Of a stretch of 64,000 bases of DNA, positions 57,707 to 60,209 are shown in pieces (within the stretch, counting starts at the first letter, position 1; the number at the start of each line of letters is the position of its first letter). The stretch covers positions 3,584,001-3,648,000 of the forward strand of contig CBDHHL010000032.1 of NCBI GenBank assembly GCA_965263355.1, in the 5' to 3' direction. Source of the stretch: Leptolyngbyaceae cyanobacterium. Its GTDB lineage: Bacteria > Cyanobacteriota > Cyanobacteriia > Phormidesmidales > Phormidesmidaceae. The notes below the pieces were generated by a model that worked only from the letters and a program-made list of their open reading frames with translations, searched no databases and was not told where the DNA came from. A program made the position numbers and the translations under genes.

Positions 57707-58106
57707 TTAGGCCAGTTGAGCGAGTGTCTTTGCGAGGGTTAAATCTTTCTGAGTCAGTCCCCCTGCATCATGGGTGGTCAGACTAATGGTGACTCGATTA
57801 TAGGAAATTGTAATGTCGGGGTGATGACCAGCGGCCTCTGCAGGCGCCACTAATTTATTGACGAATTCAATTGCATCAAGAAAATTCTTAAAGGTCAACA
57901 TGGTTTGGATGGAGCTGCCCTCTATGGCCCAGCCAGGCAGTGAATCGAGCGGCCTCTGCAGGCGCCACTAATTTATTGACGAATTCAATTGCATCAAGAA
58001 AATTCTTAAAGGTCAACATGGTTTGGATGGAGCTGCCCTCTATGGCCCAGCCAGGCAGTGAATCGAGTTGGGACTGGATTTCGGCAGAAGTGAGAAGGTT
58101 TGTCAT
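57707..58106 (-). pseudogene. 4a-hydroxytetrahydrobiopterin (pterin-4a-carbinolamine) dehydratase, frameshifted by a 118-bp tandem duplication
   Basis: N-part 'MTNLLTSAEIQSQLDSLPGW' and C-part 'AEAAGHHPDITISYNRV.ISLTTHDAGGLT.KD' are in different frames. Confidence 0.88.
57830..58067. repeat. Perfect 118-bp tandem duplication
   Basis: 57830-57947 equals 57948-58065, with AG microhomology at the junction. Confidence 0.95.
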
Positions 58107-58239: not shown

Positions 58240-58502
58240 AAAAAAACTATCCGCTCCTATCAGGGAAGTGCCTTAGCAACTTCAGAATAGGAGCGGTCTA
58301 GTGGGGTCTTAGGTTGAAACTAGACTGCCGGAAGGAACTCTAGCTCGTCAGTTTCAAATATATTGAAGCTAATTCTAAAGAACAGCCCCGGCACACAGCC
58401 AGCTCACGTCAACCTGAAGACCCATGCATATACAACTACTTTCACTCATGGGCATCACCTCCTTATCCCTAGACGGTTTTAATACCAGGAGCACTTTGTG
58501 CT
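58240..58502 (-). ncRNA. Candidate ~260-nt small RNA / micro-ORF transcript
   Basis: Extended -10 TGnTATAGT at 58509-58517, TAAGGAGGTGAT, 4-codon ORF, 10-bp terminal stem plus U-run. Confidence 0.5.
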
Positions 58503-58520
58503 AACTGAACTATAGCACAT

Positions 58521-58557
58521 AAAAAAAGCCCCGATTTTAAGAGTCGGGGCTTTTTTT
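58521..58557 (-). terminator. Rho-independent terminator of psbD
   Basis: AAAAAAAGCCCCGA...TCGGGGCTTTTTTT. Confidence 0.9.
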
Positions 58558-58572
58558 ATTGCTGTGTGACCC

Positions 58573-59631
58573 TTATAGAGCGTTACCGCGTGGCAGTACC
58601 TCTTCGGGGAATACAAACTTCTCGTGGGGCTGGTCCTGAGAGGCCATCCACGCACGAATACCTTCGTTCAGCAGAATGTTCTTGGTGTAGAACGTTTCAA
58701 ATTCAGGGTCTTCGGCAGCGCGAGTTTCCTGAGAGACAAAATCGTAGGCCCGTAGGTTCAATGCGAGCCCCACGATACCGACAGCACTCATCCACAGGCC
58801 GGTAACCGGTACAAACAGCATGAAGAAGTGCAACCACCGTTTGTTGGAGAAAGCGATACCGAAAATCTGAGACCAGAAGCGGTTCGCAGTGACCATGGAG
58901 TAGGTTTCTTCGGCCTGTGTGGGTTCAAAGGCGCGGAAAGTGTTCGCCCCTTCCCCATCTTCAAACAGTGTGTTTTCCACAGTGGCCCCGTGAATCGCAC
59001 ACAGGAGTGCCCCACCGAGGACACCAGCGACCCCCATCATGTGGAAGGGGTTGAGGGTCCAGTTGTGGAAGCCCTGCAAGAAGAGCAGGAAGCGGAAGAT
59101 AGCCGCCACGCCAAAGCTGGGTGCAAAGAACCAGCTGGACTGGCCCAAGGGATACATCAAGAACACCGATACGAACACGGCAATCGGAGCCGAGAACGCA
59201 ATGGCATTGTAGGGACGTAGGCCGACCAGACGAGCCACTTCGAACTGACGCAGCATAAAGCCAATCAGCCCGAATGCGCCGTGGAGGGCAACGAAGGTCC
59301 AGAGTCCGCCGATTTGGCACCAGCGAACAAAGTCACCCTGTGCTTCGGGACCCCAAAGCAGGAGTAGGGAGTGACCCATGCTGTCAGCGGGAGAGGAGAC
59401 AGCAACAGTCAGGAAGTTAGCGCCTTCCAGATAGGAGGACGCCAGTCCATGGGTGTACCAGGACGTGACAAAGGTGGTGCCAGTGAGCCAGCCGCCTAGT
59501 GCCAAGAAGGCGCAAGGGAACAGTAGCAAACCGGACCAGCCGACGAAGACAAATCTATCGCGCTTGAGCCAGTCATCGACGACGTCAAAGACGCCCCGAT
59601 CGGCTCCAGCACGGCCCATTGCAATGGTCAT
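58573..59631 (-). CDS. psbD: Photosystem II D2 protein (monocistronic psbD2-type copy)
   Basis: MTIAMGR...'[16 protein letters not shown]'...'[10 protein letters not shown]'; 352 aa from ATG 59631; followed by a terminator, not psbC. Confidence 0.98.
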
Positions 59632-59936: not shown

Positions 59937-60209
59937 ATGTATATAGTTGAACTTTTGCTGAAGCATACGGCTTTACCTATGTCAGTTCAGAAGAAGACGG
60001 CAGAGGCTGCGAATGAGGCGTACGCTATGGTTTTGAATGCGCTCAAAACTGGTCAGCCCGCAGTCTTAGAGTTAACTTGTGATAAGCAAGAGGGCAAGAC
60101 GCTATCGATTTTGGTGAGTGAATTAGCTGCGGTGCAAGTTTATGAAAAATCGGGTGGAGCTTCTTCGTCTGGTAAGGCGGCTGGATTTTTTGCCATGGCG
60201 AATGATTAG
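59937..60209 (+). CDS. Conserved cyanobacterial hypothetical protein (UPF0367-like)
   Basis: 'ELLLKHTALPMSVQKK...LELTCDKQEGK...AAGFFA'. Confidence 0.75.
   Translation: MYIVELLLKHTALPMSVQKKTAEAANEAYAMVLNALKTGQPAVLELTCDKQEGKTLSILVSELAAVQVYEKSGGASSSGKAAGFFAMAND

Follow-up and report, generated by a model that had tools for sequence, protein, structure and literature searches.

An abundant cyanobacterial RNA family encoded behind psbD combines an unusually strong Shine-Dalgarno sequence with a fixed layout, suggesting a role in holding ribosomes

The small RNA encoded directly behind psbD in a Leptolyngbyaceae cyanobacterium is, judging by the motifs it shares with published sequences, a member of the known cyanobacterial family ncl0160/Sye_sRNA1, and its unusually strong Shine-Dalgarno (SD) sequence, together with a fixed layout, suggests that the RNA works by holding ribosomes rather than via the tiny peptide that it encodes. 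Since the RNA, its SD and the predicted peptide are already in print, the locus itself is no discovery. What is new here is the reading of published gradient data as co-sedimentation with the 30S subunit, the near-neutral evolution of the peptide, the fixed start of the long helix and a branch of the family that appears to be picocyanobacterial. The evidence narrows the question to the product, that is, to a choice between peptide and ribosome occupancy. If occupancy is what matters, the family would be an RNA-based regulator of the small ribosomal subunit found throughout the phylum, with a bearing on light-tuned translation in phototrophs.

Results

Organization of the locus

The window, a stretch of 64,000 nucleotides, had been annotated initially from its letters as carrying a unit of about 260 nt behind psbD on the minus strand, with an extended -10 element, a near-complete complement of the 16S rRNA tail, a 4-codon ORF, a region with hairpin potential and a terminal stem followed by a U7 run. 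The features of the locus are as follows.

58573..59631, minus strand: psbD (D2 protein), upstream neighbour, a 352-aa ORF that is terminated separately
58521..58557, minus strand: psbD intrinsic terminator (A-run, hairpin, T-run), identified from sequence, with Rfam hits that are sub-threshold and of terminator type only
58509..58519, minus strand: extended -10 promoter (TGnTATAGT), TGTGCTATAGT, identified from sequence and homolog conservation
58240..58502, minus strand: RNA of the ncl0160/Sye_sRNA1 family, predicted at about 263 nt from fold, homologs and literature match
58454..58465, minus strand: 12-nt SD, TAAGGAGGTGAT, with a predicted duplex of -19.1 kcal/mol
58420..58453, minus strand: possible early hairpin H1 (58453-58447 with 58426-58420), predicted to lie over the AUG
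58375..58449, minus strand: 24-codon ORF, MSESSCICMGLQVDVSWLCAGAVL followed by a stop, with no Pfam or NCBIfam family
58435..58440, minus strand: AGUAGU single-stranded motif (codons 4-5), conserved at the RNA level
58304..58423, minus strand: long conserved hairpin, supported by covariation
58240..58301, minus strand: terminator hairpin with a conserved GA/A internal loop (motif in 95 of 115 homologs), then U7
57707..58106, minus strand: pcd/phhB (pterin-4a-carbinolamine dehydratase), downstream neighbour (PF01329, NF002017)

Most of the initial annotation is borne out by these features. The psbD terminator (58557-58521), the extended -10 (58519-58509) and the long SD (58465-58454) were all found on the minus strand, as were both strands of the terminal stem (58296-58287 and 58260-58251) and the U7 run (58246-58240), and the stem reaches 58301/58247 by way of the GA/A internal loop. 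Transcription would be expected to start at about 58502. The 4-codon ORF, however, was a misreading: the sequence runs ATG AGT GAA AGT AGT TGT, without the AAG TAG on which the short frame depended, and the ORF has 24 codons (58449-58375). The exceptional character of the SD was confirmed, its duplex of -19.1 kcal/mol comparing with a best value of -9.5 kcal/mol among the 51 long ORFs of the window, for first-ATG starts and a canonical anti-SD rather than the 16S of the source organism. Ordinary cyanobacterial mRNAs mostly have weak SDs.

A generic promoter and terminator scan flagged neither the promoter nor the terminator of the unit in the window. Among the 115 homologs described below, TGnTAnnnT lies upstream of the SD in 78 (13% in shuffles) and a canonical terminator lies downstream in 96. 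RNA-library contigs from three studies (X2, X3 and X4) fall within 58293-58502; they come from relatives, carry no information on ends, strand or level, and provide a weak hint. Two side observations concern the neighbouring genes. The pcd/phhB ORF is split by a 118-bp exact tandem duplication (57830-58067, minus strand), which one contig of run X6 skips and which is probably an assembly artefact or a strain variant; relatives carry an intact 93-aa pcd gene. On the other side, a 90-aa PRK13683 hypothetical gene (59937-60209, plus strand) is divergent from psbD, a position that it keeps even in a picocyanobacterial locus (L212).

Identity with ncl0160/Sye_sRNA1

In the sections available of Brenes-Alvarez 2016 (PMC4734099), ncl0160 is reported in 83 of 89 genomes with its SD boxed and a peptide of 23-25 aa predicted, and Leptolyngbya PCC 7375, whose copy is 91% identical to that of the window, is marked as a carrier. 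Tan 2018 (PMC6091082), in the portion consulted, describes Sye_sRNA1 as an RNA of about 200 nt by northern blot with 53 homologs, mostly behind psbD or cobB, and ranks it first in abundance among the non-rRNA sRNAs of several cyanobacteria; the same source equates it with Synechocystis TU475 and has cobB running 24 codons into the RNA in PCC 6803. In one of the homologs collected here (L120), cobB likewise runs on into the RNA, by exactly 24 codons (477 versus 453 residues). TU475 is tagged ncl0160 in the accessible part of PMC4195498, where its reads number up to 1.66 million, peaking in exponential phase and reaching their minimum in darkness. The window copy lies directly behind psbD, combines a ribosome-binding site with an ORF of 24 aa and shares with the published family a conserved secondary structure, here seen as a consensus fold with covariation. 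Its only departure from ncl0160 is one extra codon, as in close relatives, and there is no difference at the family level. By eye, the Nostoc 7120 sequence of ncl0160 in Table S3 agrees with the present alignment in the block from SD to AUG, the ORF, the 3' arm and the beginning of the terminator, and rows of Fig. S1 share motifs with the window family. Any novelty of the RNA and its SD is hence forestalled, at least by what these portions of the two papers contain (PMC4734099, PMC6091082).

In main-text literature searches, no paper but the 2016 one named ncl0160 and none but the 2018 one named Sye_sRNA1, and no function for either was found in the literature searched. Within the parts of these accounts consulted, there was no 30S co-sedimentation, near-neutral peptide, +24 helix, H1 or picocyanobacterial branch. 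Literature searches with the peptide or a DNA motif returned unrelated papers only, and searches of Pfam and NCBIfam with the 24-aa peptide found no family. A comparison was run with the covariance models of Rfam 15; no family matched the RNA body in the window, where sub-threshold hits centre on the psbD terminator, and eight further loci (seven homologs and L181) gave 0 hits at E 0.5. The family is thus one without an Rfam model in that release.

A resemblance to PmgR1/Ncr0700, raised in the initial annotation on grounds of size, does not extend to identity. PmgR1 is an abundant Synechocystis sRNA of similar length (251 nt), but the published Ncr0700 sequence, as given in the part of PMC6596454 consulted, lacks by eye the SD-AUG block, helix and terminator motifs of the family. 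The gradient profiles also differ, with a fraction of 0.007 in F16-17 against 0.175 for ncl0160 in the portion of the Grad-seq table examined (PMC8136920), and PmgR1 peaks in darkness, where TU475 is lowest. Yfr6 was also dropped as a candidate, having in the available text a 33-aa ORF, other loci and no copy in WH8102 (PMC1242208), and a type I toxin mRNA does not fit the peptide, which is polar and variable rather than a conserved hydrophobic membrane peptide.

Distribution and synteny

A BLASTN-type search, which had been proposed at the outset, revealed phylum-wide conservation: of 401 genomes across the phylum, 155 matched at E 0.01 (22 of these treated as weak), essentially at one place per genome. 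Copies 90-93% identical to the window RNA occur in Leptothoe, Adonisia and Leptolyngbya genomes that were reached through the neighbouring 90-aa gene. The homolog set comprises 114 loci chosen among the matches listed plus the window, 115 in all. By its layout, the RNA is a free-standing unit. In main-clade loci with long flanks, the upstream gene is psbD in 39 of 74 and cobB in 9 of 74; downstream, 54 of 74 have a co-oriented pcd or porin gene, and 11 of 75 have a convergent gene next. Exact searches of viral contigs with three patterns gave 0 matches.

A sequence-only model (R1) was then applied to 160 of the 268 genomes with no BLAST match or a weak one. Because 50 candidates were scored per genome and many genomes are incomplete, its misses count as "not found" and not as absence. 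Ten genomes matched at E 0.05, of which seven proved real on inspection (L170, L171, L176-L180), comprising four more main-type copies and a shorter version in three small genomes, where it was the best match of the model (E 3.6e-5 to 1.2e-3). This shorter version was matched in 39 of 46 genomes of one genus, 37 of them strongly, and in 83 of 121 genomes of its family, 75 at E below 1e-7. It is about 250 nt long as estimated by eye, occurs in 1-2 copies per genome and has a 17-codon ORF in 47 of 48 loci, a median SD of -15.8 kcal/mol, psbD upstream in 22 of 48 loci and, in the loci inspected, a convergent next gene. The helix starts at +24 in 48 of 48 loci, and the GACCC-terminator junction and GA/A loop are the same, with the flanking pairs changed. 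On the gene content of the small genomes, we infer that the shorter version is picocyanobacterial, and the family hence appears to reach the picocyanobacteria. An AT-rich 2-Mb genome also yielded a strong SD with an unrelated 23-aa hydrophobic ORF and a terminator (L181; G146:C14:104396-104432 and downstream); it does not belong to the family and resembles a type I toxin-like gene.

A covarying helix at a fixed distance from the start codon

The hairpin potential recorded in the initial annotation is substantial, the predicted unit folding at -92.8 kcal/mol with a z score of -3.55, a value matched by 0 of 200 shuffles. In the long hairpin, codons 10-24 of the window ORF form the 5' arm and a non-coding 3' arm ends in GACCC; across homologs, the last two thirds of the ORF are base-paired with the non-coding arm in this helix. 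For the helix and terminator together, 20 of 45 pairs are changed on both sides and 96.4% of cells are paired, which exceeds 500 of 500 shuffles and all slid controls, in an alignment of 41 homologs with a canonical terminator that omits 10 more divergent ones. Sequence conservation in the non-coding 3' arm and in the GA/A terminator loop exceeds what pairing would require. A putative long-range interaction between the 5' CCGUYUAGG motif and the terminator strand was dropped, as no compensation was seen by eye.

The geometry at the start codon is nearly invariant. Counted from the AUG, the helix begins at +24 in 98 of 115 homologs and at +27 in 15 (113 of 115 together), the latter corresponding to one extra codon, as in the window copy. 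GGAGG, which served as the anchor and failed at no locus, lies 8 nt upstream of the start codon in 114 of 115 homologs and 9 nt in the remaining one, and the start codon is AUG or GUG. In the full-length RNA the SD is predicted to be partly open, with a median unpaired probability of 0.42 across homologs and 0.13 in the window. Folding predictions give the 7-bp early hairpin H1 in 87% of the 115 transcripts when truncated and in 13% when full-length, and the positions of H1 pair in 104-113 of 113 sequences (96.5% of cells); the homolog alignment has no covariation at H1, and H1 is not kept in the picocyanobacterial version. It is possible that H1 would cover the AUG in the nascent RNA and compete with the main helix.

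Selection on frame and stop under a near-neutral peptide

ORF lengths among the 115 homologs are tightly distributed (23 aa in 95, 24 in 16, 17 in 3 and 25 in 1), with TAA stops in 58 and TAG in 57. The initial annotation held that a long intact ORF behind this SD in relatives would mark a decayed gene; there is none above 25 codons in the 115 homologs, and the unit is therefore not a decayed gene. The 25-aa ORF is the only frameshifted one of the 115 (L093; G319:C2), and it ends two codons past the usual stop position. Elsewhere, indels within the ORF comprise whole codons in several groups. Four homologs that lack the usual stop end one codon later, at a position where only 5 of 101 others have a second stop. 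Given the whole-codon indels, with that single exception, and this backup stop pattern, translation itself looks selected.

The comparison of structure with coding conservation, likewise proposed at the outset, sets the covarying helix against a peptide that is scarcely constrained. By parsimony on a tree of 111 sequences (the frameshifted ORF and the three 17-aa ORFs being dropped), omega is 0.89 in frame versus 1.52 and 1.63 in the other frames. By segment, it amounts to 1.12 for codons 2-8, 0.92 for codons 9-16 and 0.41 for codons 17-23, the last against 1.35 and 3.44 in the other frames. The low C-terminal value is a real hint of peptide selection in the alignment, confounded because these codons lie in the helix and are subject to pairing. 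Radical residue changes occur in codons 2-16, and Cys18 swaps with Arg, Ser, Trp or a stop. At Ala21, the unpaired second base never changes and the third base does. A stop at codon 18, inside a helix bulge, is found in L170, L177 and L116-118, with the helix sequence kept in L170 and L177, and another homolog (L178) has the same ORF length with a different C-terminus. The two Ser codons at positions 4-5 are AGT in 106 and 107 of the 111 sequences, with a single synonymous AGC; since they almost never change synonymously, constraint at the RNA level is indicated. In this alignment, the start, frame, stop and covarying hairpin are maintained around a peptide whose evolution is almost neutral.

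Association with the small ribosomal subunit

In the portion of the Synechocystis Grad-seq table consulted (PMC8136920), ncl0160 is bimodal, with a fraction of 0.258 in F7 and 0.08/0.175/0.065 in F14-15/F16-17/F18. Its 3' row, in cluster 16, has 0.129/0.295/0.115, close to uS4 (0.30/0.267/0.113) and to two rRNA rows of the same cluster, taken as 16S by their profile (0.138/0.357/0.111). The large-subunit proteins uL2 and uL3 are 95-97% in F18 (pellet), and the norf1 mRNA has 0.012 in F16-17. In the one part, out of 220, that served as background for the table, F16-17 exceeds 0.1 in 2 of 19 sRNA rows (ncl0150 and ncl0160) and 1 of 18 mRNA rows. On these partial data, roughly a quarter to a third of ncl0160 travels with free 30S, and the larger peak, at F6-8, is free of ribosomes. 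The co-sedimentation could reflect SD pairing that was kept or formed after lysis. The earlier proposal that 30S binding is itself the function thus gains from the co-sedimentation of ncl0160 with 16S and uS4 and from the weak selection on the peptide, whereas sequestration of ribosomes is only putative. Neither the main text of the Grad-seq paper (PMC8136920) nor that of a Ribo-seq preprint (bioRxiv 10.64898/2025.12.20.695498) mentions ncl0160. The latter, in the part available, places Synechocystis start-codon peaks 19 nt 3' of the start codon, and the helix, at +24 or +27, would therefore begin just outside the initiating ribosome. As a separate observation, ncl0150 has 0.325 in F16-17 and falls with the 16S cluster in the portion of the table consulted (PMC8136920); it may be adjacent to the ncl0160 unit or a read-through portion of it, or else a second 30S-bound RNA.

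Discussion

The reading that we tentatively favour, at somewhat less than even confidence, is that of a free-standing, structured and highly expressed RNA that serves to load ribosomes and retain them, its peptide being largely a by-product. In this model, the unit has an extended -10 promoter and a terminator of its own, as their conservation and the published transcription of homologs show. An SD of -16 to -19 kcal/mol would capture the 30S subunit, in line with the co-sedimentation in published Synechocystis data. An open window of about 23 nt precedes the long helix, which begins at +24 or +27, just past the leading edge (about +19) of an initiating Synechocystis ribosome, so that the AUG could be accommodated in the P site with no structure to melt; here the geometry is observed and the fit conjectural. 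The over-strong SD and the helix would presumably slow escape into elongation, so that the RNA dwells on 30S or initiation complexes. Since frame and stop are conserved, elongating ribosomes would be expected to unzip the helix, terminate within its 5' arm and briefly free the non-coding 3' arm. As the least certain output, the RNA might buffer or report spare initiation capacity in phototrophic growth, and its structure and turnover would then depend on ribosome traffic. The wider proposition, that a 30S-capturing RNA with slow release at the +24 helix acts as a dedicated buffer or sensor of initiation capacity from filamentous cyanobacteria to picocyanobacteria, is plausible but doubtful. 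Several points count against the holding reading: an SD of this strength might keep any RNA on 30S, or let it bind there, after lysis, the main peak at F6-8 is free of ribosomes, omega falls to 0.41 in codons 17-23 and the SD is only partly open.

The same omega value speaks for the reading of Brenes-Alvarez 2016, in which the RNA is an ordinary structured mRNA and its product a 23-aa microprotein that functions, perhaps in connection with photosystem II, through an active C-terminal RLCAGAVL. Linkage to psbD, the conserved start, frame and stop, the in-frame indels against a single frameshift (L093), the backup stop pattern and the invariant second base of Ala21 all point the same way. We consider it a rather unlikely account, given an omega of about 1 with radical changes in codons 2-16, a variable Cys18, a C-terminus that several lineages and all picocyanobacterial copies have lost or exchanged for another, the confounding of the C-terminal omega by helix pairing and the lack of a Pfam or NCBIfam family. 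Sequence conservation beyond pairing in the 3' arm and the GA/A loop, a very high steady-state level and the large ribosome-free pool at F6-8 (in the gradient and expression data consulted) would instead fit a trans-acting or protein-binding sRNA whose helix or 3' arm is the active part, with an SD-bound ribosome shielding and stabilizing the 5' end. Such a role is unlikely: neither a conserved frame nor a conserved stop position is needed for shielding, the helix buries the 3' arm, and in all 23 of the 23 loci tested the pairing of this arm with the psbD 5' region failed to surpass shuffles.

A ribosome-mediated attenuator, in which a leader peptide and terminator control read-through into pcd and the porin gene, would account for the co-oriented pcd or porin gene in 54 of 74 loci, for the helix end that abuts the terminator and for the extension of Synechocystis TU475 some 430 nt past the RNA in the accessible part of PMC4195498. 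It is improbable nonetheless, as a convergent gene comes next in 11 of 75 loci and in those picocyanobacterial loci that were inspected, the codon table reveals no conserved run of sensing codons, the consensus fold contains no antiterminator and, in the portion of PMC6091082 consulted, the RNA accumulates as a discrete abundant species. Lastly, near-neutral amino acid evolution is what a remnant of a decayed gene, or chance SD-like text, would display; this explanation is scarcely credible, being refuted by phylum-wide and essentially single-copy conservation, covariation, fixed geometry and the lack of a long ORF in the 115 homologs.

Short ORFs tied to RNA structure, in which the position of the ribosome matters over the product, are familiar from TnaC-type leader peptides and arrest peptides, and SD-bound 30S subunits from STAB-SD elements. 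In the STAB-SD of Bacillus thuringiensis cryIIIA, a ribosome at the SD reportedly stabilizes the RNA. The window RNA differs from both kinds of system in having no fixed regulated downstream gene and no conserved sensing residues, and in accumulating as a free-standing species.

The 17-codon version recalls, in its range, Yfr103, which the consulted part of PMC5069720 reports from marine Synechococcus and low-light Prochlorococcus as an orphan RNA that is extremely abundant and structured. The picocyanobacterial branch may be Yfr103, but the reported dimensions differ, Yfr103 having 290-328 nt and seven paralogs in CC9605 in the same part of that source, against about 250 nt and 1-2 copies for the 17-codon version. 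Should the two coincide, two orphan RNAs of top abundance would be united. Loci of the shorter version (L220-L267) have a conserved 5' domain of their own, about 100 nt upstream of the AUG and behind an extended -10 (19 loci by eye), unlike the main branch, in which the leader is short and variable. In one picocyanobacterial locus (L212; G229:C1:2016500-2026000), a degenerate copy with no SD and an early stop lies right behind psbD, and an intact second copy lies 5.4 kb beyond it; the intervening DNA holds three long convergent ORFs. Such an arrangement would correspond to a duplication in which one copy has lost its ribosome-binding part.
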